Shown: piece by piece, positions 3,288 to 43,725 of the stretch
How positions within the stretch are numbered: the stretch's first letter is position 1
Layout: every line of letters starts with the position of its first letter
Sequence record: MT446422.1
From: Escherichia virus TH57
Strand: one strand, 5' to 3'
DNA: 64,000 bases
Made by a program: the position numbers and the translations under genes
Notes under the pieces: generated by a model
The model's input: only the letters and a program-made list of their open reading frames with translations
The model's database searches: none
Told to the model about the DNA's origin: nothing

Positions 3288-3677
3288 ATGAATATAAACA
3301 AAATGTATAGCGATGTGTCTCCTGACTTGTCAATGAGTTGGGATAAAGACGTTGCTAAAGTAACCGGTGCAAGGTCTGTTAAGAACAGTCTTCTGGGTAT
3401 AATCACCACAAGAAAAGGGTCAAGGCCTTTTATGCCTGAATTTGGATGTGATATAAGTAATCAGCTTTTTGAGAATATCACACCATTAATCACAGATACC
3501 ATTAAACGCAACATCGTCTCCGCGGTGCGGAACTTCGAACCAAGGATAAGCAATTTACAGGTTGCAGTTGTCCCTATGTATGATGATAACTCCATTATCG
3601 TAACGGTTCAGTTTAGCATTGTTGATGACCCTGACACCCTCGAACAAATCAGGATTCAGTTAAGTCAAAACGGTTAA
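3288..3677 (+). CDS. 25: baseplate wedge subunit gp25 (gpW/lysozyme-like fold)
   Basis: 129 aa; MNINKMYSDVSPD...SLLGIITTRKGSRPF.PEFGCD matches remembered T4 gp25. Confidence 0.9.
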   Translation: MNINKMYSDVSPDLSMSWDKDVAKVTGARSVKNSLLGIITTRKGSRPFMPEFGCDISNQLFENITPLITDTIKRNIVSAVRNFEPRISNLQVAVVPMYDDNSIIVTVQFSIVDDPDTLEQIRIQLSQNG

Positions 3678-3730
3678 TGCTTTAATTTTATGGCTGTATA
3701 ATGGTTCTAGACCCTTACATTGGATACATT

Positions 3731-4165
3731 ATGAAAACAGAGATTGAATATAAGTTAGAAGTCTTTCAGGATGAGTTAGATGCAGATTTAAAAATTGATG
3801 GTACTCAACTTCAATATGAAACACAAAACAACGTTTTGTTGCATAGCAAATGGTTGAGATTGTATACCAACTGCAAGAAAGAAATAATGCGTCTTGAGAT
3901 TCAGAAGAAAACTGCACTGAAAAAACGGCTAGACCATTATACAGGAAGGGGTGACCCAGGGGAAGAAGTATGCATGGATGTATACGAGAAGTCAGAATTG
4001 AAAACAGTCATGGCCGCAGATTCAAACATACTGAAGATTGATACTTCAATTCAGTATTGGGCACTACTCCAGGACTTCTGTAGCGCTGCATTAGATGGTG
4101 TTAAGTCACGAAGTTTCGCACTTAAACATATGTTAGAAATAAGACAATTCGAGGCAGGCAAGTAA
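3731..4165 (+). CDS. uvsY: recombination mediator UvsY
   Basis: KIDGTQLQYETQNNVLLHSKWL...IQYWALLQDFCSAALDGVKSRSFALKHM matches remembered T4 UvsY; start taken at internal Met MKTEIEYK; MotA-box middle promoter upstream. Confidence 0.9.
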   Translation: MKTEIEYKLEVFQDELDADLKIDGTQLQYETQNNVLLHSKWLRLYTNCKKEIMRLEIQKKTALKKRLDHYTGRGDPGEEVCMDVYEKSELKTVMAADSNILKIDTSIQYWALLQDFCSAALDGVKSRSFALKHMLEIRQFEAGK

Positions 4166-4398
4166 TGCGATATTCTATCGACGATGCGTTTAACCAAGAC
4201 GAAGAGTTCGAAGAAGAAATTAAGTATATGATGAAGGAATGGAAATTGAATCGCGCAGATATTCGTATCTGCGCTGACCACCCTTGTGGTGAAGATGTTA
4301 TCTATGTTAAAGGTAAATTTGCAGGATACATCGATGATGCGTTCTATTCTCACAATATGGGGATAGATACCGGTATGAGATACTTTAAGGAAAATTAA
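4165..4398 (+). CDS. hypothetical protein (position of T4 uvsY.-2)
   Basis: 77 aa ORF overlapping uvsY stop (ATGA junction). Confidence 0.5.
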   Translation: MRYSIDDAFNQDEEFEEEIKYMMKEWKLNRADIRICADHPCGEDVIYVKGKFAGYIDDAFYSHNMGIDTGMRYFKEN

Positions 4399-4509
4399 AT
4401 GAAAAATATTAGTAAGATTCTCGACGAGATGGTTATCTCTGCAAACCGAATAACTGAAATTGTTAATGAGATGAAAGCTCGTGCTGCTATTATGAAGAGC
4501 ACTAAATAG
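4399..4509 (+). CDS. hypothetical small protein (36 aa)
   Basis: ATG immediately after preceding stop; MKNISKILDEMVISANRITEIVNEMKARAAIMKSTK; below ORF-track size cutoff. Confidence 0.3.
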   Translation: MKNISKILDEMVISANRITEIVNEMKARAAIMKSTK

Positions 4510-4537
4510 ATATGTAAGTTTAACTGAGGAGACAATC

Positions 4538-4705
4538 ATGTCAGATAAGATTTGTGTTGTCTGTAAAACTCCAATCGATTCTGCATTGGTTGTGGATACA
4601 GACCAAGGTCCGGTGCATCCGGGCGCCTGTTATAATTATGTTCAGAGTTTGCCAGTTACGGAAAATACAGAAGAGCAACTGAACGAGACCCAACTTTTAA
4701 TTTAG
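4538..4705 (+). CDS. hypothetical small Cys-containing protein (55 aa)
   Basis: GAGGAG 7 nt upstream of ATG; MSDKICVVCKTPIDS...; followed by hairpin terminator. Confidence 0.4.
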   Translation: MSDKICVVCKTPIDSALVVDTDQGPVHPGACYNYVQSLPVTENTEEQLNETQLLI

Positions 4706-4730
4706 CTAGTGTTGTTAACCATTTTTGGTT

Positions 4731-4762
4731 TTGCCCCTTCCTTTTGGTTGGGGCCTTTTTAT
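4731..4762 (+). terminator. rho-independent terminator (GCCCC..GGGGC hairpin + T-run)
   Basis: gccccttccttttggttggggcc followed by tttttattt, at the convergence of the plus uvsY cluster and minus uvsW.1. Confidence 0.55.
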
Positions 4763-4990
4763 TTAGAAATCTTCGTCTTCGTCGTCGTCCATATCCTCAA
4801 GCTCGGCGCGTTTACCGGCAAGAGCATCACGAACACTGATATCATCGGAATCTTTTAGTTCAGCTTCTTTGCTGCGTTTTTTATAATAGCCTTCCAACTC
4901 CTTCAGACCGTCCATGGTCTGACAGGAACCAATCTTAGCCATAAAGCCTTCAATTGATGCTTCGTACATAATTTCTTCAAAGGATTTCAT
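4763..4990 (-). CDS. uvsW.1: UvsW.1 small acidic protein
   Basis: 75 aa ORF immediately downstream of uvsW, acidic C-terminus, same arrangement as T4. Confidence 0.7.
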   Translation of the reverse strand: MKSFEEIMYEASIEGFMAKIGSCQTMDGLKELEGYYKKRSKEAELKDSDDISVRDALAGKRAELEDMDDDEDEDF

Positions 4991-6489
4991 TATATTTCCA
5001 CCTGTTTAATTACATAATTGAATTGTTCGTCTGCATATCGTTGTATGCGTTCAAGACCATGCTTTAGAGCAAAGTTCAAATGAACATATTTCTTTTTAGC
5101 ATTTGCTGATTTAGGTTTAACACCCATATCATCAACGATATCAAAAACGTTTGCGGTCGATTTAGATTCATGTTTTCGAAGCACACGGCCAATTGTCTGG
5201 AGTACAATTACCTTTGATTTGACCGGGTGAGCGAAAATAATATGATGAAGGTTTTTAACGGAAATCCCCGTCGAGAATACACCATATGAAGCTACAACAA
5301 TAATTCCCTTTCCATTCTCTGCCATGACCTTCAGAGCATTACGGGTTTCGGTATCAACTTCCCCGGAAACATAATACACTTTCTCATGACCAGCTTCCTT
5401 AAGCATTTCAAACATCGATTTGCCATGCTCGATATTCTTAAACATCAAAAAGACGTTTTCATCTTTTTTAGCAAGCTTGAGAGCAAGATTTGTTACCCAT
5501 TTATTTCGGCGTGTAGCTTTTGTAATTACCTTAATTTCATCCTGATAAGTTTTACCTTTCATTTTAACGGTAAATTCATCAGGATAACGAAGGAAAATAC
5601 TATTTATTTTAAGGTCAGTAACCTGACCGTCTTCCATCAATTTAGATGTTGATACTGGTTTAAAGATATCACCAAACAGACCCATATATTGCATAAGGTT
5701 GGCTTTGCCGTCACGGAGTGAGCCTGACAGACCAAATTTAAACATACAATTCGTAAGGCCTTCGATAACCGTCGAAATTGATTTACCTGTAGCCATGTGA
5801 CATTCGTCATTCATAAACTGGCCGAACTGTTCAAACCATTCTTTAGGTTGTTTTACAGCCGTCTGATAAGTCGATACATAAATCATCGCATCAGAATCGC
5901 GTTTAGTCCCGGAACGAATACCCAGACAAGCTTCACGAGGGAAAAGCCGATAATCAACAAAGTCATTAATCATCTGGTCAACAAGCGCGGTTGTAGGAAC
6001 AAGGATAAGCACCTTGCCTTCATAGTTCTCGAGATAATATCGCGCCAGAAGCGCCTGGATGAGGCTTTTACCCGCAGACGTAGGTAAGTTCAGAATCTTT
6101 CTTCTGTTGACCAGACCATCATATACGGCGTCAGATTGATACCAATGGGGCGTTATCTTAGTATTGCCTGAATAGATTTCTTTTGACTCGACCCATTTGT
6201 CGAATTCTTCGCGAGAGATTTCTTCTTTCTCGGTGATTTGTGGGTCAATCCAGAATGAATAGCCAAACTGGTCAGCGAACTTTTTAATTTGATTAACCAA
6301 ACCGTATGGTAATTTACGATTGTAATCCAGGAGGCGGATTCGTCCGTCCCAAACTCCCTGCTTGAATTTTGGATTGAAGCGATAGTTTTCAGCTTCGAAG
6401 CTGAAGTAATCACGGAGTTCGTAGAAGATTCCATCTTCACATTCAACATGCACGTGACTAAAATTTAGAAAGTTGATTTTAATATCCAT
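4990..6489 (-). CDS. uvsW: UvsW RNA-DNA / DNA-DNA helicase
   Basis: SF2 helicase motifs (PTSAGKS Walker A, DECH box); about 499 aa from ATG at 6489; ORF-track start at 6528 is non-ATG and was not used. Confidence 0.9.
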   Translation of the reverse strand: MDIKINFLNFSHVHVECEDGIFYELRDYFSFEAENYRFNPKFKQGVWDGRIRLLDYNRKLPYGLVNQIKKFADQFGYSFWIDPQITEKEEISREEFDKWVESKEIYSGNTKITPHWYQSDAVYDGLVNRRKILNLPTSAGKSLIQALLARYYLENYEGKVLILVPTTALVDQMINDFVDYRLFPREACLGIRSGTKRDSDAMIYVSTYQTAVKQPKEWFEQFGQFMNDECHMATGKSISTVIEGLTNCMFKFGLSGSLRDGKANLMQYMGLFGDIFKPVSTSKLMEDGQVTDLKINSIFLRYPDEFTVKMKGKTYQDEIKVITKATRRNKWVTNLALKLAKKDENVFLMFKNIEHGKSMFEMLKEAGHEKVYYVSGEVDTETRNALKVMAENGKGIIVVASYGVFSTGISVKNLHHIIFAHPVKSKVIVLQTIGRVLRKHESKSTANVFDIVDDMGVKPKSANAKKKYVHLNFALKHGLERIQRYADEQFNYVIKQVEI

Positions 6490-6517
6490 GATGATTCCAA
6501 GGTAATAAATATATCTA

Positions 6518-6525
6518 TATTTATA
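6518..6525 (-). promoter_or_regulatory. T4-type late promoter box TATAAATA
   Basis: exact TATAAATA on minus strand about 30 nt upstream of uvsW start. Confidence 0.6.
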
Positions 6526-6543
6526 CACTAACCGAGGTTCATC

Positions 6544-7212
6544 ATGATTGACAAGAACTACATTGAGGAAATTCGTGTCCTCGAGAAAAAAGAAGCCAAA
6601 GAAAAATTAGCCGAATACGCAGCATCACTTGGCGTTGATGTTAAGAAAACAAAAACCTTTGATAATATGTTGGCTGACCTGGAAGCAGGACTTAAAGCAT
6701 TTGCTGACATGCCTATGCCTGATGATAATGAAGGCCTGAGCATCACTGACCTTATCGATGCCGACGATGAATTATCTGGTGCTAAATTCGAAGGGGATGA
6801 GTCCGCTAAAGAAGAAGCCAAACTATTATTTGATGCTCCAACCGAAGTAAAGGTTGAAGTTGTAGAAATCGAAAAACCTGCAACAGTTTTGGTTGAAGAA
6901 GATGTTCCCTTTGTCGAAGAGAAATTCAAAGAGGCTGTAGCCAAGGTTATCGAATCTGAAAAACCTGTATTTGCTCTGCCAAAAAACTTTAGTCCAAATC
7001 TTATGCTTATTGGCAAGAACCCTGGATTCTGTACTGTCCCATGGTGGATTTATCAGTGGATTGCCGAGACTCCAGATTGGAAAGAACGTCCAACTGCTTT
7101 CCCACATCCCACCGCACACCAAACTCTATTCAGTTTGATTTATTACATCAATCGTAATGGGTCTGTTCTAGTAAGAGAAACTCGTAACTCATCTTTTGTC
7201 ACTTTAAAATAA
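6544..7212 (+). CDS. inh: hypothetical protein in the position of T4 inh (prohead protease inhibitor)
   Basis: 222 aa ORF with GAGG RBS, between uvsW and hoc as in T4; assignment is positional only; C-terminal 60 aa look atypical. Confidence 0.4.
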   Translation: MIDKNYIEEIRVLEKKEAKEKLAEYAASLGVDVKKTKTFDNMLADLEAGLKAFADMPMPDDNEGLSITDLIDADDELSGAKFEGDESAKEEAKLLFDAPTEVKVEVVEIEKPATVLVEEDVPFVEEKFKEAVAKVIESEKPVFALPKNFSPNLMLIGKNPGFCTVPWWIYQWIAETPDWKERPTAFPHPTAHQTLFSLIYYINRNGSVLVRETRNSSFVTLK

Positions 7213-7221
7213 GGGTTTATT

Positions 7222-8355
7222 ATGGCTTATACCGTAGATATTGCTCCTTTGGCGGCCACAGCCGTTATTGGAGCAACAACCAATTTCACTGCGACCGGTT
7301 CCGGTGCTGCAGCTGAAGGTACCGAATCATTTGTTTGGACCGTTGATGGCGTTCCTCAATCTTCTGTGACTGCTGCAATGGATTATGTTGCTGTTGGTCC
7401 AGCAGGCAGTAAGACTATTAAAGTTGTTGCAACTACCACTCCGGCAGACGGCGAACCAGAAACTGCTGAGGCTGAGACAACTTTAACTATCCAGAATAAA
7501 ACAATGCCGGCAATCACGCTGACTTTAGACCCAGCCTCTGTTACTAAAGAAATAGGACAATCTCAAGTTGTTACAGCTAATATTAGCGGGCAACCAGATG
7601 GAGCGTCCGCTTCTTATGTATGGAAACGAAATGCTGACGTAATCCCAGGGCAAACTGGTAAAACAATCACCATCACCGAATCGGCTGAAGCAAATTATAC
7701 ATTGAACTGTGAAGTTACTGTTTCAGCAACAGATTATGATAATGGCACCGCAACTAAAAGCGCAGTAGTTACCTTTGTTAAGAAAACTATGTCAGGTGTT
7801 TCTGTTACATTAACCCCAGAATCAATTAATGTTCCGGAAGGTACCCCGGCTTCTTTTAAAGCGGATGTAGTCGGCGCACCTAGTGGAGCTACTTTTGCCT
7901 ATTCTTGGAAGAAAGATGGTTCTCCTGTAGTTGGCACCACGGATACTCTAGCAATCGACACAAGCACCGAAGGTTCCCAGGTTATTGAAGTTTCTGTTGT
8001 GGTTTCGGCGACTGATTATGACCCGGCGACTGTCACAAAAACCGGTAATGTAACAGTCACGGCTAAAGTCGCACCAGTTCCAGATGGCGAATTACCTTAT
8101 GTTCATCCATTGCCGGTACGTAATTCAGCTTATATCTGGTGTGGTTGGTGGGTTATGGATGAAATTCAGAAAATGGCTCTTGCCGGGCAAGACTGGAAAA
8201 CCGATGCCCCAGATAGCCCATATTATTTGCACCGATACACACTTCAAAAAATGATTACCGACTATCCAGAGGTTGATGTACAAGAATCTCGTAATGGTCG
8301 AATTATTCATCGCACCGCTTTAGAAGCTGGTATTATATACGATTACGTTTATTAA
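7222..8355 (+). CDS. hoc: head outer capsid protein Hoc (Ig-like domain repeats)
   Basis: 377 aa; repeated Thr/Val-rich Ig-like segments; size and position match T4 Hoc. Confidence 0.8.
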   Translation: MAYTVDIAPLAATAVIGATTNFTATGSGAAAEGTESFVWTVDGVPQSSVTAAMDYVAVGPAGSKTIKVVATTTPADGEPETAEAETTLTIQNKTMPAITLTLDPASVTKEIGQSQVVTANISGQPDGASASYVWKRNADVIPGQTGKTITITESAEANYTLNCEVTVSATDYDNGTATKSAVVTFVKKTMSGVSVTLTPESINVPEGTPASFKADVVGAPSGATFAYSWKKDGSPVVGTTDTLAIDTSTEGSQVIEVSVVVSATDYDPATVTKTGNVTVTAKVAPVPDGELPYVHPLPVRNSAYIWCGWWVMDEIQKMALAGQDWKTDAPDSPYYLHRYTLQKMITDYPEVDVQESRNGRIIHRTALEAGIIYDYVY

Positions 8356-8361
8356 TTAAAA

Positions 8362-8388
8362 AGGGACCTTCGGGTCCCTTTATTTTTA
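8362..8388 (+). terminator. rho-independent terminator
   Basis: gggaccttcgggtccc hairpin followed by tttattttt directly after hoc. Confidence 0.75.
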
Positions 8389-8471
8389 TGGTACTGAGCA
8401 AACGTTGCCTGGGCCCCTTTCTCCGGTAAGTCCTTGTGGCCACCATAACAATTGTTCATCTGGCATAAAAA

Positions 8472-8506
8472 CATGTTTACAAGTTAAAAATTCCATGTTA
8501 AGATAG
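8472..8506 (+). promoter_or_regulatory. sigma70-type early promoter candidate
   Basis: GTTTAC, 18-nt spacer, TAAGAT, upstream of ORF at 8522. Confidence 0.4.
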
Positions 8507-8521
8507 CTTCACCAACTCAAC

Positions 8522-8725
8522 ATGAGAATCATTATGGATAAGGTTAAAGTACATTTTCTGCATGAATCTGGTATGACATTTATTGAAATCGCCAAGGTAT
8601 TAGGCGGGACTGCTAAAGAGATGGCAAAAGCCTGGGTTGATGTAGAACAAGCCAAAGCTAAATTTAAAGCGAAAGAAAAGATTGTTTATCGTAAACGTTT
8701 GAATAACAAAAAGGTGAAGAAATGA
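8522..8725 (+). CDS. hypothetical small basic protein (position of T4 24.3)
   Basis: 67 aa ORF, Lys-rich C-terminus. Confidence 0.45.
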   Translation: MRIIMDKVKVHFLHESGMTFIEIAKVLGGTAKEMAKAWVDVEQAKAKFKAKEKIVYRKRLNNKKVKK

Positions 8726-8985
8726 CATTTGCAGAAGAACTACGCCAAATAGCCAAAGAGTCACAAGATAAAGTTGCAAATGACTTTATTGCTATATTTC
8801 GCAAAGTGGCTATTGCCGCTGCCGAGAATGGCAAAGATGCTGTTAATATGGCAGTTTCTGAAAAAGAGTATGAAGAAGGAAACCGCGCAAAGATATCTGA
8901 ATTTCTGCGGGCAGAAAAATTTACATCATTTACCTGGAATTATGACTGGCAAGAAGCCAAGCCAATGCTGTATGTAAAATTCTGA
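8722..8985 (+). CDS. hypothetical protein (position of T4 24.2)
   Basis: 87 aa ORF overlapping previous stop. Confidence 0.5.
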   Translation: MTFAEELRQIAKESQDKVANDFIAIFRKVAIAAAENGKDAVNMAVSEKEYEEGNRAKISEFLRAEKFTSFTWNYDWQEAKPMLYVKF

Positions 8986-8990
8986 CCCTT

Positions 8991-9030
8991 TTTGCTTCAA
9001 ATAAAAATGCGGTATAATGGTTCTAGACCC
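8991..9030 (+). promoter_or_regulatory. MotA-dependent middle promoter candidate with conserved downstream palindrome
   Basis: MotA box TGCTTCA (8993..8999), 13-nt spacer, TATAAT (9013..9018), then GGTTCTAGACCC. Confidence 0.55.
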
Positions 9031-9114
9031 TTTGTGACTATTAATTCCTTTCAGAGAAAGAAAGTATAGTGGGTCTAATTTATAATGATATTTATAACAT
9101 CAAAGTGAGAGATT

Positions 9115-10122
9115 ATGTTTAAAAAATACAACAGCCTTGAAAATCACTATAACAACAAGTTCATTGAAAAGATTCGTCTACAAGGCTTCACCAGCGGTGA
9201 ATGGGTAGCTCGTGAAAAGATTCATGGTACCAACTTTTCACTAATCATTGAACAAGACAATGTGACATGTGCGAAACGCACTGGACCTATCCTGCCTGCA
9301 GAAGATTTCTATGGATATGAAATTGTATTAAAGAACTATGCAGATTCTATTAAATCTGTACAGAAACTTTTGCAGGATATTAATTACCAGTCATATCAGA
9401 TTTATGGCGAGTTTGCTGGTACAGGTATTCAGAAGAATGTTGATTACGGTGATAAAGATTTTTATGTATTTGATATCCGCGTTACTAAGGAAGATGGCTC
9501 TGAATCCGTCCTGACTGACACACTTATGGAAGCCTTCTGCATTATTCATAAGTTTAAAGTTGCTCCGCGCCTGGCTACCGGAAGCTTTGAAGACCTTATT
9601 AAGCTCCCTAATGACCTGGATTCTGTGGTCCCTGATTACAATTTTACAGTGGATAACGCAGGATTGACTACAGCAAATACCACTGATTTTGATGCAAAGG
9701 TGGAAGGTAAAGTATTCACTGCTGAAGGATTTGTATTAAAACCTGATGTCCCTGCCTGGTTACCTAACGGCGAGCGTGTAGCGATTAAATGTAAGAACTC
9801 TAAATTCAGTGAAAAGAAAAAGTCTGATAAGCCTATTAAGGCTGCTGTTGTGTTGTCCCAGGAAGACCTGGATATTTTATGGAAGTTCACTGATTATGTG
9901 ACTGTTAACCGCATCAATAATGTTATCAGTAAGATTGGGGAAGTATCGCCGAAGGATTTTGGGAAGGTAATGGGTTTGACTGTCCAGGATATCCTGGAAG
10001 AAGCGGGTCGTGAAGGCCTTGAATTAACCCAGACGGAAAATCCTGTTGAAGTTAAAAAGCAACTTATCGCAAATGTAAGAGAAACATTAAGACATGTTTG
10101 GATTGCATTAATTAGTGAATAA
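9115..10122 (+). CDS. rnlB: RNA ligase 2 (Rnl2)
   Basis: 335 aa; near-identical stretches to remembered T4 Rnl2 ([64 protein letters not shown]). Confidence 0.95.
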
Positions 10123-10125
10123 AAA

Positions 10126-10150
10126 GGGCCGCAAGGCCCTTATTCTTTTT
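10126..10150. terminator. bidirectional hairpin terminator
   Basis: gggccgcaaggccc flanked by A-run and T-run, between convergent rnlB and gene 24 paralog. Confidence 0.7.
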
Positions 10151-11423: not shown

Positions 11424-12704
11424 TTACGCCTCATAAATGATTGGCGGAAGTTTAACACCGAGCAGATAAGACATGTTGCTCTGACCGGCCATTAAATCCA
11501 TATTGGTTGCATCGATAATACGAGCTTCTTTATCGTCTTTAGCAACGGTGTAAGGGTTGGCTGAAAGTGCATATCGAACCATCAAGGAGATAGATGGCTG
11601 CAAGCTGTCTGGGTCCACAATGACCTTAAACGCACCTACGTGTTCTTCATCATCTAAGTCCAGGCCTTCGGTATAAGGAGCATAGAAGATTGAGCCTACG
11701 ACTTCGTTTCCGCCGTAATTTTCTTTAACGCCAACGGTTACATAATCCAATGGACTGTTAACATCACAGAATACAGGGAGGCCATTAATCAAATAACCGT
11801 ACGCTGTTTCAGGAAGCCATTGTTCATCTTCTGGTTTATGTTTCAGCCACCCAGAACCGGCCAGCATAGCAGCAACACGGCTAGAGGCAACAACAAAGGT
11901 ACCGGAATAAGATGTAGTTTTCTGAATTTCGGAGTTCATTTCGCAAACCAGTTCATACAGTTTACGTGCGCCTTCTGGAGCTGCATCATATGTTAAATCG
12001 ATGGTGCCATTGTCAGAAACGCCAGTTACTTTATAACGCTTGGAAACGGTAATAAGAGACTGAAGAACATCTTTGTTAATTTCATCTGCCATAATAGTAG
12101 CAAGCAGGTCTTCCAGGAAAGCAGGAGCATTAAAGCCATTTGCTTCCATATCCTGAGCAAGTTCAACAGTTAATGCAGTTTTCAATTTACGGGATTTAAC
12201 AGGAGCATTCCATTTATTAACCTGGAATACAGCATTGCTAATTTCAACATCACCGGCTTCGAATTTTTCGGTGTGTGCAGCATCAGGAACTAAACGAATA
12301 GTCGATGCAATAAGACCTTCTTGCAGAACATCAGATAACACTGTTTCTGTGGTCGATGCAAATGGATTATCAACCAGAGCTTTATAAACGATATTCTGGA
12401 ATTTAATGTATCCGCCTTTAGCTACGGCCTGAGTTGGGGTTGTAAATTCCGGAATAGTTGTACGGTCTTTTGAACCAACTTCACCACCATAAGTAGCACC
12501 AGTCTGGAAACTGAATTCATTATCAGGAGTAAGATATTTAACACCGTACAGAGCCGCAACTGGCTGGTTAGTACGTTGTTCAGCGATAATATCGCGGTAA
12601 ATCAATTTGGTTGTAGCACGGGTCAAAGCAACAAGATTCGGGCGGCCCAAGGAGTTGCTGGTAGTAATAGTTGACTCGCGCAGTAATTTGTTAATCTTTG
12701 CCAT
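11424..12704 (-). CDS. 24: capsid vertex protein gp24
   Basis: start at MAKINKLLREST matching remembered T4 gp24 N-terminus; about 426 aa. Confidence 0.9.
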   Translation of the reverse strand: MAKINKLLRESTITTSNSLGRPNLVALTRATTKLIYRDIIAEQRTNQPVAALYGVKYLTPDNEFSFQTGATYGGEVGSKDRTTIPEFTTPTQAVAKGGYIKFQNIVYKALVDNPFASTTETVLSDVLQEGLIASTIRLVPDAAHTEKFEAGDVEISNAVFQVNKWNAPVKSRKLKTALTVELAQDMEANGFNAPAFLEDLLATIMADEINKDVLQSLITVSKRYKVTGVSDNGTIDLTYDAAPEGARKLYELVCEMNSEIQKTTSYSGTFVVASSRVAAMLAGSGWLKHKPEDEQWLPETAYGYLINGLPVFCDVNSPLDYVTVGVKENYGGNEVVGSIFYAPYTEGLDLDDEEHVGAFKVIVDPDSLQPSISLMVRYALSANPYTVAKDDKEARIIDATNMDLMAGQSNMSYLLGVKLPPIIYEA

Positions 12705-12743
12705 TTGCGCTTTCCTTTTGTGATATACTTTATTTATTCCCAA

Positions 12744-12768
12744 TAAAAAAGGGACTCCGAAGAGTCCC
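12744..12768 (-). terminator. rho-independent terminator between genes 23 and 24
   Basis: gggactcttcggagtccc hairpin followed by ttttttatt on minus strand. Confidence 0.7.
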
Positions 12769-12784
12769 TGAAATTTATTAAGGA

Positions 12785-14344: not shown

Positions 14345-14365
14345 GTGTTGTATAACCTTATTAAA

Positions 14366-18173: not shown

Positions 18174-18174
18174 C

Positions 18175-18666: not shown

Positions 18667-18800
18667 TAAGGAATCCTCTTTATAGACACAGGTCGCACGT
18701 ACGCGTCCCTGGTGCATGTATTTATACTAGGTAATATGATTCATCAATAAATGTATTTAGGTCGCTGGGGGAGCTCTGAGGAGTCCGTAGAACCGATGAT

Positions 18801-18845
18801 ATGCTTTTATTTATAGCATTGTATAATGGTTCTACGGTTTACTGC
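18801..18845 (+). promoter_or_regulatory. MotA-box middle promoter-like cassette flanked by 10-bp inverted repeat; antisense to neighbouring genes
   Basis: TGCTTTT, 12-nt spacer, TATAAT (18822..18827), then GGTTCTACGG; CCGTAGAACC at 18786..18795 is its inverted partner; minus-strand TATAAATA at 18808..18815 overlaps. Confidence 0.4.
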
Positions 18846-18861: not shown

Positions 18862-19467
18862 TCAGGATAATATATCCCATAAGTCAATACTATTTGATTT
18901 TCCTTTGGACCTATTAGATTCCCAAGTGACTATTTCTAAATTGTTGAGCGAAGCGATAACAGTCTCTGGTATATGATTATAAAATCCATACGCAATAGAA
19001 ACTTTATGGTCAAGTTGGTATGCACCTTCTTCCCCACATTTTCCTATCTTATCTGCATTTTCCCATGTTGACCAAATATTCTTTAGATGTTTTGCTCTTG
19101 TCAATGCATGAACACGTTGAGCGTACAAATAGAATTCACGCTTATTGCCTTTCCAGCTATGATGTTTTTCACCACGTTGCCATGGTCTTGGCACACCGCC
19201 TTGTGCAATAACATTCTTTTGTCCAATATCTTTTCTTGAACACGCCTTACATAAATGTTTATCAACGCGACGAAGCAACTGAATCCCTCGCTCAAAATGT
19301 ATCCCACATTCATCACAGGAACACTCAATCTTTTTATTACTATTATCTGGCATTTGTTCAACTGGAACAGAAATCACATCATGGTATGTTAGAGGTTTAC
19401 CTAAGTATTCGCTCCACCACTTTGCATGATTTCGTATTTGAACTTCAACAAATTTAGAAATAATCAC
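18862..19467 (-). CDS. free-standing HNH homing endonuclease
   Basis: 201 aa; CxxC...CxxC zinc finger plus HNH core (QLDHKVSIAYGF ... NNLEIVTWESNRSKG); inserted between genes 18 and 19 where T4 has no gene. Confidence 0.75.
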   Translation of the reverse strand: MIISKFVEVQIRNHAKWWSEYLGKPLTYHDVISVPVEQMPDNSNKKIECSCDECGIHFERGIQLLRRVDKHLCKACSRKDIGQKNVIAQGGVPRPWQRGEKHHSWKGNKREFYLYAQRVHALTRAKHLKNIWSTWENADKIGKCGEEGAYQLDHKVSIAYGFYNHIPETVIASLNNLEIVTWESNRSKGKSNSIDLWDILS

Positions 19468-19484
19468 TTGTAAATCCTTGCGCG

Positions 19485-19492
19485 TATTTATA
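19485..19492 (-). promoter_or_regulatory. late promoter box TATAAATA embedded in an 8-bp-stem hairpin (HNH gene)
   Basis: GCGCGTAT-ttatatc-ATACGCGC palindrome 19480..19502 contains TATAAATA on minus strand about 20 nt upstream of HNH start. Confidence 0.5.
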
Positions 19493-19534
19493 TCATACGC
19501 GCATTATAACCCAAGTTAAATCAGAAGTAAAGTC

Positions 19535-33012: not shown

Positions 33013-33039
33013 AGGTAAGCCTCATTATTGATATAGTTA

Positions 33040-33047
33040 TATTTATA
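33040..33047 (-). promoter_or_regulatory. late promoter box TATAAATA (gene 9)
   Basis: exact TATAAATA about 28 nt upstream of gene 9 start. Confidence 0.6.
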
Positions 33048-33051
33048 AAAT

Positions 33052-33073
33052 AAAAAAGGGACCCGAAGGTCCC
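33052..33073 (-). terminator. rho-independent terminator after gene 8
   Basis: gggaccttcgggtccc + ttttttatttt on minus strand. Confidence 0.7.
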
Positions 33074-33076
33074 TAG

Positions 33077-37169: not shown

Positions 37170-37197
37170 TAAGATTCCTTAAAGCCTCCGAAGAGGC

Positions 37198-39156
37198 TTA
37201 TAATGTAATTGGTTCTAAATTAATAGTCGTATACTGTGGACGAAGGTCATTTTCGAATACGATAAGCGAACCGTCTTTTGTATAGATATTGTCCTGGACT
37301 GGACCTGCATACAATTCGATTGATTGCACTTCAAAACGTTCAGAAGATAAACCAATTGCAGCGATGTCCCAGAAAATATAATCAGACCAATAATCGATTT
37401 CGCCGATTACAAAGTATTGAGTCTGGTCAGCTGGTGCAGCCATCTTATTAAAGTCAGTACCTGTATAAGGTTGAATATTTGTATTAAGCTGAACATCACC
37501 TGGACGGAACGGACCAATGACCATTTTACCATCACCAGATGAGTTGCGGTCAGTCGCTACAATACGGACGTTATATGAGGTAACAGTATCACTTTGGTTA
37601 GTTGGAACAAATTCGAATTCGCTTGATTCCACAGACCTATTAGTATATTGATTATAATATTTAATGCCTGATTCTGGAGTCTTAAAGAAGTTCAAGACTT
37701 CACGAACCATTGTCACCGTTGCAGACGAACCCAAAATACTATGGTCAGTATTATCCACATAAGTGAGCATTTTCGATTTAGCAAAACTGTGGTTAAACAA
37801 TTCAACTTCATCGATATAATAGCGGTCAATCTGGTTAATGATTTGTGCTTGCAACCACTGTTCAGATTCCTGTAATTTATTCAGCGCATAAGACACTTTG
37901 ATATTGTGTTTAAGGAACAAATAATCAGGAGAAATAACTGATGGTGTAATTGTTGATACGTTGAACTCACTAAGGTAGTTTTTGATGTCCTCACGCTGCA
38001 CTGCGGTGAGATACAAGCCCGATTTAGGCTTAACTGATATAAACGCATACCCAGGTTTATTTGCGTCCGTAAACGTCTGTACGGCTTGTACGATTGAGCC
38101 AAATCTTTCTGATACGAAGGTATCATAATCAGTCCCGGTGACAGCACGCATCTGCGCTTCACGTTTAACTACAGCCAGTTCGCGGATTCGTTCAATATCT
38201 TCCGGGTCACCGCCACCATCAGCTCCAACGTAATCTTTATCGTTATTATAGTTTTCGGTAATCTTGTCAACAGTGATATAAGACAAGGAGTCAGCATAGC
38301 TGAAGTCAACTGCACCATTTGCATCAGCCCCTGATGTGCGAAGATATTCGATAACAATTGTTGAATCCTGTACGGGTTTCAGTCCACCAATATAGTTTGC
38401 TTCCAATACGCCACCGGCAACAGATTTGGTCGATTCACCTTCACCGAAGAAGAATTCGGTATTACCATCAACAGTTTCACGCATATAGAAAATAGTGGAC
38501 GTTGAACCAGCATGAACCATTGATTTGTTTGTCCAGTCAGTCCACTCGATGCCGTTCACAAAAAGCTTAACTTCTTTTCGGTCAATATCCGGGTCACGAA
38601 TAAGAATAGGCTGTTTCGGGTCATACAAAAGTTCGGTACGAATAATGCGGCCTTGTGCAAGGGATACAATCGGCAGATATTGGTTATTAATGTCTTTTAC
38701 CGCGATTACATTATCCGTTGTGACAAACATATAAGGGTCAGCTGATGTATCACGAGCATAAGCCAGGAACTTGGTCCCGCGTGGAATTTCAATATTCGAT
38801 GGTTGGAGAGCATGAGAACATGTTAGCATAACCGAAGTCTTTGCGGCCGAACGTGAAGATGGGAGATAACCATTATCCTGTGCAGCCTGAACAACCGAAG
38901 ACCTTAGGTTTGCAGTTCCGATAAATGATTCATAAACTGCTGTATTAGCAAACTGCTGCATATACAATGTATTATATGCAAGCATATCAATCAGGATATT
39001 CATTCGCGAACCTACGAAATCATAATCCTTAAATTCGTCCTGGCTTGATAGCCAGTCTATAATATTCTTTTTAATTTCTTCAAACGTAGCTCCCACAAAT
39101 ACTTTTGGGATAGCGTTAACGGTTCTTGTTAATTGGTAATTCGTAGGAGTAGCCAT
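37198..39156 (-). CDS. 6: baseplate wedge subunit gp6
   Basis: 652 aa vs T4 gp6 660 aa. Confidence 0.9.
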   Translation of the reverse strand: MATPTNYQLTRTVNAIPKVFVGATFEEIKKNIIDWLSSQDEFKDYDFVGSRMNILIDMLAYNTLYMQQFANTAVYESFIGTANLRSSVVQAAQDNGYLPSSRSAAKTSVMLTCSHALQPSNIEIPRGTKFLAYARDTSADPYMFVTTDNVIAVKDINNQYLPIVSLAQGRIIRTELLYDPKQPILIRDPDIDRKEVKLFVNGIEWTDWTNKSMVHAGSTSTIFYMRETVDGNTEFFFGEGESTKSVAGGVLEANYIGGLKPVQDSTIVIEYLRTSGADANGAVDFSYADSLSYITVDKITENYNNDKDYVGADGGGDPEDIERIRELAVVKREAQMRAVTGTDYDTFVSERFGSIVQAVQTFTDANKPGYAFISVKPKSGLYLTAVQREDIKNYLSEFNVSTITPSVISPDYLFLKHNIKVSYALNKLQESEQWLQAQIINQIDRYYIDEVELFNHSFAKSKMLTYVDNTDHSILGSSATVTMVREVLNFFKTPESGIKYYNQYTNRSVESSEFEFVPTNQSDTVTSYNVRIVATDRNSSGDGKMVIGPFRPGDVQLNTNIQPYTGTDFNKMAAPADQTQYFVIGEIDYWSDYIFWDIAAIGLSSERFEVQSIELYAGPVQDNIYTKDGSLIVFENDLRPQYTTINLEPITL

Positions 39157-39164
39157 TTTATTTC

Positions 39165-39458
39165 CTATTTTATAAAGACTTTTGATGAGGCTTGAGCCAC
39201 AGTATCACCACATGAAATCGGGTCTGCCATTTGAACAGCTTTCTTGCCGGTAACGAATACCTTCGGAGTTCTTGGTTGTGTTACTCCGCCGTGGGTTTCA
39301 TATGGTTTTTTAATTTCGGTATGCTCGGTAATAGGGTCTCCGGCAACTAATACCGGAATTCCCCCGGTGAATACTTTACCTTGAGTTGCATTGATTACAG
39401 TCGGTGGCCAGGCTTCGTGACCTGCTGTAACACATTGATTGAAACTTAATCCAGCCAT
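39165..39458 (-). CDS. 5.4: PAAR-repeat baseplate spike tip protein gp5.4
   Basis: 97 aa, Gly/Pro/His-rich PAAR-like sequence, same length as T4 gp5.4. Confidence 0.8.
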
Positions 39459-39979
39459 TAATCCCTCGCGTATACGTATGAACGCAATTTATCTGCCCAT
39501 CTTGACCAGTTACCGACGATAGTTTTTGTGTAAACTTTTGTCATTGTCTTTCTTACTGGAGCAGGAGGTGGGTCGGTCTCATTACCTGTACGGCTATTAC
39601 TGCCACCAGAGTTCCCTGTGTCTCCACCAGAGCTCTCTTCTTGAAAGTCATAGGTTAGGGTTACCGTGTATGAAAAGACCTTCTGGAGGCTCGCTGGGGC
39701 CCTCCAGAGATACAATTGAGTACTCTTATCTGTAGGAAGGTCTTCCCATGAACCGGCAGTTTTGAATTCATCATTAAGCCGATATTTAAGCGCATCATCT
39801 GCAAATCCGAACACGGATTCATAAACACCGTAAAGATGATTACCCTCAACATTAACGCCAGGGGTGGCCTCATATTCAGTTATATTTATTTCGACTAATG
39901 TTTCGTTTGTTTCTAATTGAGCCGTAAACGTAACATCGATTGAGGCTCCTTCCATGGAGTCTCCTAGGTCAGTGCTCAT
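39458..39979 (-). CDS. hypothetical protein (position of T4 5.1)
   Basis: ORF between gp5 and gp5.4; start uncertain (ORF-track start 40039 overlaps gp5 3' end). Confidence 0.45.
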
Positions 39980-39989
39980 TGGAAGTATA

Positions 39990-41732
39990 TTAGCCAATGT
40001 CAATCCTCGAACCATCAATAGTATATTGACCAGATGCAATTGAACTCATTGTTGACATTGTTTCGGACCAATTGCCAGCCACGGTCATATCAACGTTTCC
40101 ATTAACAGACCATTTGACATTACCATTTACCGTATAATCATGGTTACCTTCGACAAGAGTTTTTGCATCACCTTTAACAGTTATTTCAGCATTACCTTCG
40201 ACAAGAATACTTACATTACCTTTGACGATAATTGTACCATCACCTTCGATAGTTTTGGTTTCATTCCCTCTGATATGAATACTTTCGTTTCCATCGGTCT
40301 GGCGACGAACGTTAGCCATATTGTAATAGGTTTCATCACCGCCAACGTTGACTTTATTATTACCACCAACATAAGTACTCGAATCGCCCTGGGTCATATA
40401 ATAACCATCAGCCACAGTCTTCGAAGTTTTACGGCCATCTGGTGCAACTTCCTCATAGGACCCGGTTGGGTGAATCAGTCGATAACGTTCTTGCCCGGGT
40501 GTATTATCGAATTCCTGAATATGACCGCCTTCAGTTTGCATTGTCTGCACGTAAGGATATTCACCCTTGTAACTTGATTCTGGTTCTTTAAATAGAATCC
40601 TCGTATCTTCTGGAGTCCACGGGTCGGCCGGGTCAGAATTTGTAGGGGCTGCAAAGGTTTGAATCATCCTATAAGAACGGCCATTAAATTCTCTTTCTTT
40701 AGGGGCCATAATACCATATGATTCCATATTACCGGTAAGGATAATCATTGATACCCTTGATGCACGCCCTTTAGTTTGGTTAAACCATACTGAATTGCGA
40801 GCTTCCTCAAATGCCTTCTTATAATCGCCTATTAACATTGCACTAAGCATTCCACGGAATTTAGCCAATCCACCTAATCCCATTTGGAAAGCCATGTTTT
40901 CAAGAGCCATTTGTCTCGAACGGTTTTCTTTATTGTAAACCGGACCTACAACACTATGCTTGCCTATATCGTTTTGGACTTTTTTAAGGTCTTCCTGGAA
41001 TAACTTAGAAGCCTCGTCCATTGATATTGCACCAGGGTTACCTTTAACTTCACGGCCTATTTGATTAGATAATATTTTGTTTATCTGATTCATATCTCTA
41101 ATAGGTTGTGGTGCAATTAAGTGCCCTATACCTATAGTAGGATAACCCTCGGTGTCCCAATATACTTTCAAACGAAGACCTTCATCACGGTGAAGCATAT
41201 TTTCAATTGTGAAATTAGGGTTATCATCTGGTTTAACCTGACTCAAATCAAGACCATCCGGGTTAATACCCAAATCAAGGTTTGCATCTTGTATTACGTT
41301 CGAAGTGGCACCATAACCGACTTCGCCTCCACGGTTAAGCGCAGCAGCATCATTACCTACATAAAGCGGATATTGCCCGGTGGGGTCAGAGAAACCTTCG
41401 TTAGGATTTGCTTTTTGTCTTGAGGCTGAACCATATGTGCCAATGACAAGACCGTTGAGCTTCCACTTGTCTAAAAAGTGACCATACACTTGGGTTCCCG
41501 GGACCATACCAGTCATGGCAGTTTGAATTCCAGAAACCGATGCAGATGATGTTGGCATCAATACTGACATCCAAGGAAGGTCTTCAGTTCTGATACCTTT
41601 TACTGGCCCTTGTGCTTTCTCATATGGATGCATACCCCATACGCGAACACGTACACGACCTTGTTGAAGTGGGTCCATTCGGTCTTCAACAACCCCGACG
41701 AACCAACTTACATTATCTGACATATTAATCAT
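39990..41732 (-). CDS. 5: baseplate hub subunit and tail lysozyme gp5
   Basis: 580 aa; OB-fold N-terminus, T4-lysozyme-like domain (YWDTEGYPTIGIGHLI), C-terminal beta-helix VxGxxxxx repeats. Confidence 0.95.
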   Translation of the reverse strand: MINMSDNVSWFVGVVEDRMDPLQQGRVRVRVWGMHPYEKAQGPVKGIRTEDLPWMSVLMPTSSASVSGIQTAMTGMVPGTQVYGHFLDKWKLNGLVIGTYGSASRQKANPNEGFSDPTGQYPLYVGNDAAALNRGGEVGYGATSNVIQDANLDLGINPDGLDLSQVKPDDNPNFTIENMLHRDEGLRLKVYWDTEGYPTIGIGHLIAPQPIRDMNQINKILSNQIGREVKGNPGAISMDEASKLFQEDLKKVQNDIGKHSVVGPVYNKENRSRQMALENMAFQMGLGGLAKFRGMLSAMLIGDYKKAFEEARNSVWFNQTKGRASRVSMIILTGNMESYGIMAPKEREFNGRSYRMIQTFAAPTNSDPADPWTPEDTRILFKEPESSYKGEYPYVQTMQTEGGHIQEFDNTPGQERYRLIHPTGSYEEVAPDGRKTSKTVADGYYMTQGDSSTYVGGNNKVNVGGDETYYNMANVRRQTDGNESIHIRGNETKTIEGDGTIIVKGNVSILVEGNAEITVKGDAKTLVEGNHDYTVNGNVKWSVNGNVDMTVAGNWSETMSTMSSIASGQYTIDGSRIDIG

Positions 41733-42331
41733 AATGCCTTCTCCATTTCACGGATAAGCGCGGAAATAAATGACTCAATGTCTTCCGGGTCAATTATTTT
41801 TATTTCGCGTTTGTATTCATTTTTACGGATAGCATCTTCATAGATATCCACTGCAGCTAATGGACCTTCATACTGCGGGTATAATTTGTTCTTGTCACCT
41901 TTATCGTACCAAGTGTATGGATTATCAGGATAAGAAACAAGGTTCCAGAACTTCTCGCCGTTTTCATTCACATGATAAAGGACCTGGTTACCACCAACAT
42001 TCGAATATTTCTGAATAGATGCCTGGTAAGATGATTCCTGAGAGCCGAGCCAACCATAATAAGGGTCATAGATATCATTGAGCATAAGGAGAACCCAATA
42101 TAGCTGCGTGTTCCCATAGAGCTGATATGCTAATTCTTCAGGTCTCGGAGCTCCTGCGATGTAATAGGTTTTTGGCGTATAATTAGCAGCGACCTTATCG
42201 AAATAAGCACGGTAGTTTCTGAAGATATCAGTCATTGGAATGCTTAAGACGTCTTCTTTCGTCAATGATGCTGAATTTTTTCTGATTGTTTTTGCATCAT
42301 AATCAATTGGGTTAAAAAATGAAAAAAGCAT
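41729..42331 (-). CDS. 53: baseplate wedge subunit gp53
   Basis: about 200 aa from ATG at 42331 preceded by GGAGG; divergent from gene 4 as in T4. Confidence 0.75.
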   Translation of the reverse strand: MLFSFFNPIDYDAKTIRKNSASLTKEDVLSIPMTDIFRNYRAYFDKVAANYTPKTYYIAGAPRPEELAYQLYGNTQLYWVLLMLNDIYDPYYGWLGSQESSYQASIQKYSNVGGNQVLYHVNENGEKFWNLVSYPDNPYTWYDKGDKNKLYPQYEGPLAAVDIYEDAIRKNEYKREIKIIDPEDIESFISALIREMEKAL

Positions 42332-42340
42332 AAAGCCTCC

Positions 42341-42351
42341 ATTTATAAATA
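42341..42351. promoter_or_regulatory. palindromic late promoter region shared by divergent genes 53 and 4
   Basis: ATTTATAAAT palindrome gives TATAAATA on plus strand (42344..42351) and TATAAAT on minus. Confidence 0.5.
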
Positions 42352-42379
42352 AGTATATCAATATTTATTAGGAGGCTAT

Positions 42380-42829
42380 ATGGCATACTCCGGGAAATTT
42401 AAGCCCACTAATATAGAAAAATATAAGGGCGACTGGAAGAAAATACAATACCGGTCAAGCTGGGAGGCTTGGTTGATGAGATGGCTCGACAACCATCCGA
42501 ACGTTGTTCAATGGGGCTCTGAGACTGTGATTATTCCATACTTCTGCAATGCTGAAGGTAAAAAGCGCAGATATTATATGGATTTCTGGGTTAAGTTTGA
42601 TACAGGGCAACAGTTCTTTTTTGAAGTTAAGCCATTAAAAGAAACAAGACCTCCAACCAAACCGGTTAATAATACCGCCGCGAGTAAAAAGAGATTTATT
42701 AACGAGATGTACACTTGGAGCGTTAACTCTGACAAATGGAAAGCTGCACAAGCTACCGCAGATAAAATGGGTATAACGTTCAGGATAATCACTGAAAACT
42801 CACTGAAAAAATTAGGATGGAAAGGATGA
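42380..42829 (+). CDS. 4: head completion protein gp4
   Basis: 149 aa vs T4 gp4 150 aa; RBS AGGAGG. Confidence 0.9.
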
Positions 42830-43650
42830 GTATTTTTACATTTATCAATGAATCTGTAGATAAACCAGGGCCAAAACCCAGTAAATCCGAACAACAATGG
42901 GTTGAGATAGGGGTTGAATTTTATACAGCAAAAGAAAAAGGAATGACCTCGAAGAAGTTTGCTGAAGAGAAAGGAATCAACTATTCGACCTTTACCAAAA
43001 GCATGTCAAGATACAATTCGAGAATTCAGACTGCTTATAAAGTATCCAAACTCAAAAAGAAACCTGCTGGTAAACTTACGAAGGCAGAACGCCAGCTGAT
43101 AATGGTGAATAGTTTTAGGAAGAGCATAAGAGATAAGATTGCCAACGAAGGCGCTGCAAGCAACACCAAATCTGCCAGATGGTTCGCAGAGACAATTAAG
43201 AAATCAGTTCGCGGACACGTAACGGCTAAACCTCAACCAGGTAAACTTTATGCTTATATCTATGATGCAAAGCATAAGGATACTCTTCCATACTGGGACA
43301 AATATCCGTTAATTATTTATCTTGGTCTAGGTAAGCATAATTTGATGTACGGTTTGAACTTGCACTATATTCCACCGAAGGCACGTCAAGAGTTCCTTGA
43401 GGAACTTCTTAAGCAATATGCTAATACTCCTACGATTACAAACAAGACTCATCTGAAGATTGATTGGTCAAAGGTGAAGGGATTTAAAGGGGCTGACCAG
43501 ATGATTAAAGCATATATACCTGGCAATATAAAAGGTACTATCACTGAAATCAAGCCCAGCGACTGGGCAAACGTTGTTATGCTTCCGTTGCAACAATTTA
43601 TGTCGAAAGGCAAAAGATTCTCTTCCCAGAAAGTATGGAGAAATTCATAA
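42826..43650 (+). CDS. 2: DNA end protector protein gp2
   Basis: start at [10 protein letters not shown] gives 274 aa, same as T4 gp2. Confidence 0.85.
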
Positions 43651-43685
43651 TCTATTATCGGTCAGTGTTATTGGTAAGGACAAAA

Positions 43686-43725
43686 GGTCTAGAACCATTA
43701 TAACACTGATTGTTTTAAAGCAAAC
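43686..43725 (-). promoter_or_regulatory. MotA-box middle promoter-like cassette in antisense orientation to gene 2
   Basis: minus strand reads TGCTTTA, 13-nt spacer, TATAAT, GGTTCTAGACC; same cassette as upstream of uvsY and rnlB. Confidence 0.4.

Follow-up and report, generated by a model that had tools for sequence, protein, structure and literature searches.

A candidate subclass of MotA-type middle promoters in T4-like phages, with conserved orphan copies opposed to their neighbouring genes

Introduction

Middle promoters of bacteriophage T4 carry a MotA box, (a/t)(a/t)(a/t)TGCTT(t/c)A, near -30 and 12 +/- 1 bp from a TAtaaT element (PMC2988021). Two of them, PuvsY and P34i, belong to the two R-loop replication origins of T4 that are molecularly defined, oriF, or ori(uvsY), and oriG, or ori(34), each of which combines a middle-mode promoter with an A+T-rich unwinding element (DUE) within about 100 bp and is primed through an R-loop (PMC3016281). 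T4-type phages are also known to shuffle cassettes made of a promoter and a stem-loop: in the PeSL type these are mostly early promoters with the stem-loop upstream, found in hyperplastic regions beside variable open reading frames (ORFs) (PMC4122927), and a middle version, PmSL, has been documented in vibriophage nt-1 (PMC2839356, PMC4122927). The present work concerns a short promoter-like element that occurs four times in a stretch of 64,000 nucleotides from Escherichia virus TH57 (MT446422.1; the whole stretch is called the window below), once upstream of uvsY, once upstream of rnlB, and twice as an ‘orphan’ opposed to the genes around it. Its assignment to a conserved subclass of MotA/AsiA-dependent middle promoters, marked by a constrained block from -6 to about +9, is well supported by sequence comparison.

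The window shares about 96% identity with Escherichia phages TH22 and UPEC07, has SP18 and VR20 among its further relatives, and comes, by sequence, from a T4-like phage of the genus Gaprivervirus. Its gene content includes baseplate hub genes, uvsY, uvsW, hoc, rnlB, head and tail genes and genes 4-2-3-1, after which a block of small genes, early and middle, begins. The genes motA and asiA lie outside these 64 kb, and both are encoded by VR20, a member of the same genus with the same four sites. Orthologous regions from many T4-like genomes were compared across genera, and IMG/VR was scanned with the pattern GCTT-N13-16-TATAATGRNYCTA; the matches listed were mostly unrelated contigs, and only those from T4-like phages were used.

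Four copies of one promoter element

All four elements described in an earlier note on this DNA are present. Site 1, the uvsY promoter (3678..3713, plus strand), is formed by TGCTTTA (3678-3684), a 12-nt spacer, TATAAT (3697-3702) and GGTTCTAGACC (3703-3713, the block from -6 to +5), with a predicted start at A 3709 and the uvsY ATG at 3731. Site 2, the rnlB promoter (8993..9029, plus strand), is formed by TGCTTCA (8993-8999), a 13-nt spacer, TATAAT (9013-9018) and again GGTTCTAGACC (9019-9029), with a predicted start at A 9025 and the rnlB ATG at 9115. These two sense copies, placed as the note had said, would express middle genes that are isolated among late genes with no early promoter upstream. 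The other two are indeed opposed to their neighbours. Site 3 (18802..18837, plus strand), with TGCTTTT (18802-18808), a 13-nt spacer, TATAAT (18822-18827), GGTTCTACGG (18828-18837) and a predicted start at A 18834, lies between gp19 and an HNH-like ORF followed by gp18, all of them on the minus strand. Site 4 (43722..43686, minus strand), with TGCTTTA (43722..43716), a 13-nt spacer, TATAAT (43702..43697), GGTTCTAGACC (43696..43686) and a predicted start at A 43690, was described as pointing into the 3' end of gene 2; it does point towards gene 2, but it sits outside that gene, in the 85 nt that separate the stop codon of gene 2 (43648-43650) from the ATG of gene 3 (43736).

The 13-mer TATAATGGTTCTA has four exact matches in the window against 0.00 expected from 100 dinucleotide-preserving shuffles, and with up to two mismatches it has eight against 2.76. 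The block GGTTCTAGACC taken alone, again with up to two mismatches, is not enriched in the window (11 matches, 9.4 expected). Downstream of TATAATGGTTCTA three copies continue with GACC(C)TT and site 3 with CGGTTT (within 18828-18837). Among the four copies, identity is 100% from -12 to -1, which covers the -10 hexamer and the six following positions, 60% from +1 to +8, 40% in the spacer and about 30% in the flanks. Since identity is limited to this core and the spacers differ, the copies look like a constrained core and not like the trace of a recently duplicated longer segment. Of the element of about 40 nt that the earlier note had proposed, the box, the spacing of 12-13 nt and the TATAAT hold at all four sites, whereas the near-palindrome holds at three and is lost at site 3.

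Measured against the mapped T4 middle promoters, the copies have the expected anatomy. Their boxes read TGCTTTA, TGCTTCA, TGCTTTT and TGCTTTA, the final T of the site 3 box in place of A falling inside the tolerated variation (PMC2988021); the spacers are of 12, 13, 13 and 13 nt, and the -10 element is TATAAT in every copy. The PuvsY start of T4 has been mapped at 115371, 7 nt past the -10 hexamer (PMC2988021, Table 1). Site 1 is the positional ortholog of PuvsY, lying likewise between gp25 and uvsY, and it shares with oriF the MotA box, the 12-13 nt spacer, the TATAAT, a discriminator that begins with G, a TCT run, the A start and A+T-rich DNA downstream. The two differ in their initial transcribed sequence (AGACCC in the window, AAGTCC in T4) and in the leader, which has 22 nt in the window and 44 nt in T4, so that any unwinding element at site 1 would overlap the uvsY coding sequence.

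A promoter subclass and its members in T4 and VR20

When the class was written as the regular expression TA[TC]AATG[GA].[TC][CT][TC]A, in a form tuned and widened after P34i had been seen, the whole T4 genome gave five matches, and a correctly spaced MotA box was present at all five. These are an element at 11885 (plus strand) in the srd/modA gap, antisense to every surrounding gene; PnrdC.7 at 53337 (minus strand), which faces its own gene; an element at 75988 (plus strand) in the gene 2/3 gap, also antisense; PuvsY at 115383 (minus strand), of oriF; and P34i at 153023 (minus strand), of oriG, antisense inside gene 34. PuvsY has near-twins in the elements at gp2/gp3 and srd/modA. For example, PuvsY (ATGCTTCA...GTGGTATAATGAATCTAAGTCCATCC) and the gp2/gp3 twin (ATGCTTTA...GTGGTATAATGGGTCTAAGTCCCTTCC) share 30 of 44 positions from -34 to +10. 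Both twins are absent from the table of 58 mapped T4 middle promoters (PMC2988021) and unannotated in NC_000866 and AF158101, and neither is mentioned in T4 reviews, as far as the accessible literature goes. Literature searches for a T4 map of transcription starts or of antisense transcription found none, and a search with the sequence string returned nothing relevant.

In VR20, a complete genome of the window's genus, there are six MotA-type members, four of which are antisense orphans: those in srd/modA, gp2/gp3 and gp18/gp19, and one internal to gene 34 that is a clear ortholog of P34i. The other two precede rnlB and uvsY. All other matches of the expression in VR20 fall on early promoters, which have GTGTACA at -35 together with TATAATGAYYYYA. 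At least four lineages have the srd/modA orphan, which stands there back to back with the early promoter of srd.

Over all sites and genera the consensus reads MotA box, N12/13, TATAAT, G(G/A)NYYY, A at +1 and (A)GGTCYTT, and in the window's genus the block is GGTTCT followed by AGACC(C)TT. The 58 mapped T4 middle promoters share the MotA box, the spacing and the sigma-70 -10 element with this subclass (PMC2988021). They differ from it in that most have A/T-rich discriminators (mean GC 0.32 over the 6 nt past the -10 hexamer) and no initial transcribed sequence is common to them. They also face genes, while about half of the subclass members are orphans opposed to their neighbours, with no conserved ORF downstream. 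By the accessible literature, a subclass with a constrained -6 to +9 block, the conserved orphans that make up about half of it, and two unlisted PuvsY twins in T4 itself appear to be new. The result bears on genome annotation as well: where MotA promoters run ‘antisense’ in late-gene clusters of T4-like phages, they are conserved features and not noise.

Conservation of each site

The uvsY promoter reads TATAAT GAATCT AAGTCC in T4, with the block GAATCTAAGTCC, and TATAAT GGTCCT ATGG in JS98-like phages, where the JS98 block is GGTCCTATGG; further lineages among the matches listed have GGGTCT ATGGG, GGGTCC ATGGG or GGTTCT AGTTCC. The rnlB promoter reads TATAAT GGGTCT AGGTCC in JS98-like phages (JS98 block GGGTCTAGGTCC) and GACTCT AGGTCTC, GTCTCT AGATCTC or GGTTTC AAGG elsewhere. 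As for the orphans, the antisense gp18/gp19 copy is kept in VR20 and VR25, both of which are without the HNH-like ORF, and it is found in JS98-like phages (TATAAT GGTTTT AGGTTC) and in one further lineage; it is absent from T4. The antisense gp2/gp3 copy is present in T4, in JS98-like phages, in CAU_ECP01, in at least three other IMG/VR lineages and in an Acinetobacter Lazarusvirus, as TGCTTTAC-N12-TATAAT GGTTCT ACCGG. It is missing in Krischvirus, Pseudotevenvirus and Tulanevirus. A Slopekvirus, phT4A, has a long A+T-rich gap upstream of gene 3 with two sigma-70-type promoters antisense to that gene (e.g. CTTGACC-N17-TATAAT) and repeated GATCTATAAT motifs; these promoters may be a counterpart of the orphan that uses another promoter type.

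The earlier note had considered that the orphan copies might be remnants of a cassette-mediated rearrangement. Both keep the same intergenic positions in other genera, and their shared identity extends only from -12 to +8; the fixed positions rule that idea out. A broader form of it, in which every copy is a mobile PeSL/PmSL-type regulatory cassette, or what is left of one, spread by recombination, with the orphans as functionless leftovers, has in its favour the cassettes already documented in T4-type phages and the endonuclease-gene insertions that adjoin two of the sites. The window copies resemble PeSL/PmSL in being a short promoter module that recurs in several intergenic regions, with stem-loops at two of the copies. 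They differ from PeSLs in being of the middle type and in lying in a conserved core. A PeSL/PmSL cassette has an upstream stem-loop on the same strand, whereas sites 1 and 2 have no stem-loop and the inverted repeats of sites 3 and 4 surround the core of the promoter, their stems belonging to the late RNA of the opposite strand. Nor do the sites lie in hyperplastic regions or at indel boundaries between close relatives. Endonuclease genes do insert beside two of them but leave the cassette unmoved, and the cassette is intact with or without such a neighbour. The orphans stand at fixed positions in the conserved core across genera, T4 included, and identity stops short of the spacers and flanks. 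Positional conservation has thus largely refuted the mobile-cassette explanation, to which we give very little credence.

The start-site block and its palindrome

The near-palindrome that follows the -10 element had been thought conserved, and a shared protein-binding site or a structure at the RNA 5' end had been proposed for it. The TCTAGA palindrome is, however, confined to the window's genus and is not kept at the orthologous uvsY and rnlB promoters, where the start region is TCTAAGTCC in T4 and CCTAGGTC or CCTATGG in JS98-like phages, as against TCTAGACC in the window's genus. What is conserved instead is a G-rich discriminator, a pyrimidine run, the A at +1 and (A)GGTCYTT. Dyad symmetry around +1 in 31 members amounts to 3.03 of 5 complementary pairs against 2.57 +/- 0.11 in shuffled sequences, an excess whose significance is overstated because the sequences tested are mutually related. 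The palindrome was therefore rejected as a conserved feature, being lost in orthologous promoters and leaving only a weak dyad excess. The proposal of an RNA structure did not hold up either: in the rnlB leader, AGACCC pairs with GGGUCU (9071-9077) in the minimum free energy structure, but with a z of -0.22 this is no better than in shuffled sequences, and no such structure was found at the uvsY leader.

Copies within one genome are more alike than orthologs across genomes, which leaves room for a genome-specific partner or for micro-conversion. If GGTTCTAGACC were an operator, a phage-encoded dimeric DNA-binding protein sitting on the start site would switch this subset of promoters off, or on, jointly. 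The near-palindrome of the window's genus, centred on +1, would suit such a protein, the likeness of copies within a genome beyond that of orthologs would fit co-evolution with a genome-specific factor, and the dyad symmetry lies slightly above its null. Palindromy is gone, though, in most relatives and at site 3, the relatedness of the test sequences inflates the dyad figure, and no candidate protein was found; an operator is accordingly improbable.

Origin-type primer transcripts

The reading that we lean towards, with considerable reserve, is that the four copies are active middle promoters, that the uvsY copy is the ortholog of oriF, and that the most likely products of the orphans are non-coding transcripts that serve as primers or form R-loops. 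Its promoter part is the well-supported one; transcription, R-loop formation and origin activity are what we infer. A primer role seems the likeliest for the orphans because P34i of oriG, the one such orphan whose role is known, is an antisense promoter of similar type and the uvsY copy is the ortholog of oriF. Like the window orphans, as these are predicted, P34i is a MotA-dependent orphan directed against a late gene with no ORF to express, it carries TATAATGG, and it is conserved across genera. It differs from them in lying inside coding DNA, while the window orphans are intergenic and enclosed by late-RNA hairpins, and in its downstream block.

In the proposed mechanism, MotA would bind TGCTT(T/C)A at about -30 and region 2 of sigma-70 would read the TATAAT, with a start at the A seven bases past the -10 element, as in the mapped T4 PuvsY. 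The GG at -6/-5 could, judging from the biology of Escherichia coli promoters, give a long-lived open complex through sigma region 1.2. The orphans would then yield non-coding transcripts that run against late genes, and these transcripts, as well as that of the uvsY copy as its second job, would stay annealed in A+T-rich DNA just downstream, forming an R-loop that would prime leading-strand DNA synthesis. From +9 to +50 the DNA at the four copies contains 67-74% A+T, against a window mean of 59% (standard deviation 8%; 90th percentile 69%). No ORF downstream of the orphans is conserved across the compared genomes. A small ORF after site 3, of 44 amino acids (aa) in UPEC07 and antisense to the gp18 C-terminus, was considered as a product of the orphan and rejected, as neither the JS98-like phages nor the window have a counterpart of it.

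The positions of the T4 members could be compared with the known origins. The T4 record NC_000866 annotates oriF at 115321 and oriG at 152947, next to PuvsY and P34i. Of the other three members, the gp2/gp3 twin is 3.4 kb from oriE (79355), the srd/modA twin is 4.9 kb from oriA (16763) and 3.4 kb from soc, and PnrdC.7 is about 5.5 kb from rI.-1, a marker for oriC (PMC3016281); the orphans near oriE and oriA point towards them. We calculate that three points placed at random would each lie within 5.7 kb of a different one of these three origins with a probability of 6 x (11.4/168.9)^3, or about 0.002, an estimate weakened by T4 origin coordinates that are accurate only to the kb.

Further points weigh against an origin role. 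PnrdC.7 points away from oriC, and A+T richness of the degree seen downstream of the copies is ordinary for intergenic DNA. The classic T4 screen of origin plasmids recovered only ori(uvsY) and ori(34) (PMC3016281), so that fragments with the gp2/gp3 or srd/modA twins evidently did not score; according to the same review, oriE works from an early promoter and has no middle-mode one close by, and oriC needs late transcription (PMC3016281). Jiaodavirus and Tegunavirus, in which genes 2 and 3 abut, do without the gp2/gp3 orphan, which is in that sense dispensable. Finally, besides the tuning of the class definition mentioned above, P34i is the loosest member of the class (GGTCCCAGAG), and its sequence is confounded by a conserved gp34 peptide, LWDHYT, encoded on the opposite strand. 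The copies may also be strong promoters whose orphans merely survive.

A bolder extension, which we regard as rather unlikely, is that what sets R-loop-forming middle promoters of T4-like phages apart from ordinary ones, a determinant so far missing, is the module from -6 to +9 (GG, pyrimidine run, A at +1, GGTCYTT), that the unlisted orphans are the MotA-dependent primers behind the loosely mapped oriE and oriA, and that replication starts are possibly coupled in this way to late transcription. The orphans concerned are those at about 76.0 kb (gp2/gp3) and 11.9 kb (srd/modA) in T4 and at 43690 (minus strand) and 18834 (plus strand) in the window. As these orphans oppose late genes, their hybrids would put a primer-template junction on the non-transcribed strand of those genes; if so, the junction would have the polarity that the gp45 clamp needs for late promoters and could link early replication starts to late transcription. 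In any case, a subclass that holds both defined origin promoters together with conserved orphans offers a short list of testable sites for the open question of T4 origins. Some of these orphans lie in T4 itself, missing from the list of mapped promoters, and the positions from -6 to +9 form a specific block to mutate.

Antisense regulation as an alternative

The orphans might instead be promoters of cis-antisense regulatory RNAs, with no role in replication. Transcripts made at middle times would pair with RNA of genes 2/4 and of gp18 (here also of the HNH-like ORF), so delaying or trimming the expression of late genes or of homing endonucleases. The direction of the orphans, into late genes, suits this proposal, and so does the reach of the site 3 transcript, which would span the entire HNH-like ORF of the window; in UPEC07, VR25 and a JS98-like phage a homing-endonuclease gene lies directly downstream of the site 4 promoter. 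Such genes are, though, absent from most genomes that retain the orphan, sense late RNA is scarce while middle promoters are active, and the srd/modA and gene-34 orphans face quite different targets with the same promoter module. A terminator-like hairpin (GCCCAG TCG CTGGGC followed by TTGATTT; 43568..43554, minus strand) lies antisense within gene 2, some 125 nt past the site 4 start. T4 has a different hairpin at the same codons and JS98-like phages have none, so that no terminator is kept across genera; conserved structure is likewise lacking. A cis-antisense small RNA in the usual sense, a discrete transcript with a conserved terminator or structure, was thus not recognized here, and the Rfam scan of the window found no RNA family at the orphan sites. 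We consider antisense regulation an unlikely main function.

Hairpins in the late RNA

Both orphan cores are enclosed by inverted repeats that would fold in the late RNA of the opposite strand. At site 3 the hairpin (18788..18837, minus strand; -19.2 kcal/mol, z -6.35) has 10-bp arms, CCGTAGAACC (18788-18797) and GGTTCTACGG (18828-18837), and surrounds the promoter core together with a minus-strand TATAAATA (18815..18808). At site 4 the hairpin (43659..43712, plus strand; -23.9 kcal/mol, z -4.13) encloses the -10 hexamer and the start of the orphan. Its arms vary by genus and yet pair, as UCAGUGUUAU/AUAACACUGA in the window and AGCCAGU/ACUGGCU in JS98-like phages, and the pair of columns 23-71 is seen as AU, GU and GC. 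The upstream arm precedes the orphan start, so that a transcript from the orphan itself would lack this arm and could not fold into the hairpin. The T4 hairpin lies wholly downstream of the gp2/gp3 promoter, which is fully retained; promoter and hairpin being kept apart there, the promoter-likeness is no by-product of the hairpin. The late-RNA hairpin and the promoter are two overlapping features in one small gap.

These hairpins bear on a further explanation, in which selection keeps an element of the late mRNA, an AU-rich motif with a stable hairpin that serves processing or stability, and the likeness to a promoter on the opposite strand is incidental. In keeping with it, both orphan cores lie inside strong late-sense hairpins, the arms covary, ATAAUCUAUUAUC precedes the hairpin in several genera, and further late intergenic regions of the window have hairpins around TATAAATA. 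Three things make the explanation hard to believe: in T4, where the hairpin is entirely downstream, the MotA box, the spacing, the TATAAT and the -6 to +6 block are nevertheless kept; selection on a hairpin cannot yield exact 13-mer identity to the uvsY and rnlB promoters; and the srd/modA and gene-34 orphans have no such late-RNA context.

The motif ATAATCTATTATC (43647..43659, plus strand) is conserved and stands directly after the gene 2 stop codon and directly 5' of the hairpin. It is also found after the gp18 stop codon and before a hairpin in the gp18/gp19 gap of JS98-like phages, so that a late-gene stop, this near-palindromic motif and a strong hairpin follow each other at two intergenic sites in several genera. 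Motif and hairpin together may be a signal for RNA processing or stability in late mRNA.

Late promoters and neighbouring insertions

The TATAAATA at 18815..18808 (minus strand) matches the late-promoter consensus; it falls within the site 3 spacer and is part of the loop between the 10-bp arms. A further one, at 18726..18719 (minus strand), is nearer to gp19, and alignment with relatives suggests that the true gp19 start lies about 16 codons past the first ATG. Another TATAAATA, at 9096..9089 (minus strand), is antisense in the rnlB leader, and transcription from it would run back over the promoter of rnlB and over the small ORFs that precede it.

Compared with VR20 and UPEC07, the window has an insertion of about 640 bp (18862-19530, minus strand) between the gp18 stop codon and the site 3 cassette. 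Its ORF (18862..19467, minus strand; 201 aa) had been labelled HNH, for which a DH...N...N motif and weak hits to endonuclease VII and homing-endonuclease families speak; the label is otherwise doubtful, as the ORF has no Pfam match and matches PHROG 5104, a family of unknown function. Just upstream of it lies its own TATAAATA (19492..19485), inside a GCGCGTA/TACGCGC hairpin. A homing-endonuclease gene is inserted between gene 2 and ATAATCTATTATC in UPEC07 (44384-45058), VR25 and a JS98-like phage; these three genomes, of two genera, have the insertion at the same spot, and the orphan cassette downstream is intact in each. The possibility that the cassette is a homing-endonuclease target or hitchhiker was rejected, as it is intact at the same spots in relatives without endonuclease genes and in T4.

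Other features of the window

Two adjoining transfer RNA genes (48486-48638, plus strand) are the only matches at the Rfam gathering threshold in the window, and a search near gene 5 for iterons like those of oriE found no multi-copy repeat family there. A TGCTTCA-N12-TATAAT match at 52904-52928 (plus strand), inside ORF 52545..52991 and directly upstream of ORF 52988..53278, is followed by AAGTTCCTAGAC, similar to the class block except for an AA discriminator; the match is probably a middle promoter of the ordinary kind, internal to the first ORF. Early-type promoters at 58585 and 59046 (plus strand) have GTGTACA at -35; the module conserved downstream of it is TATAATGAYYYYA, behind which come leaders such as TCAACTACTGGAG, and VR20 has early-type promoters with the same module at 6483, 10964, 19296, 36861, 166272, 167429 and 167851. 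Since the early promoters of the genus also carry a downstream module, cassettes of promoter plus leader would seem to be a general habit of these genomes.

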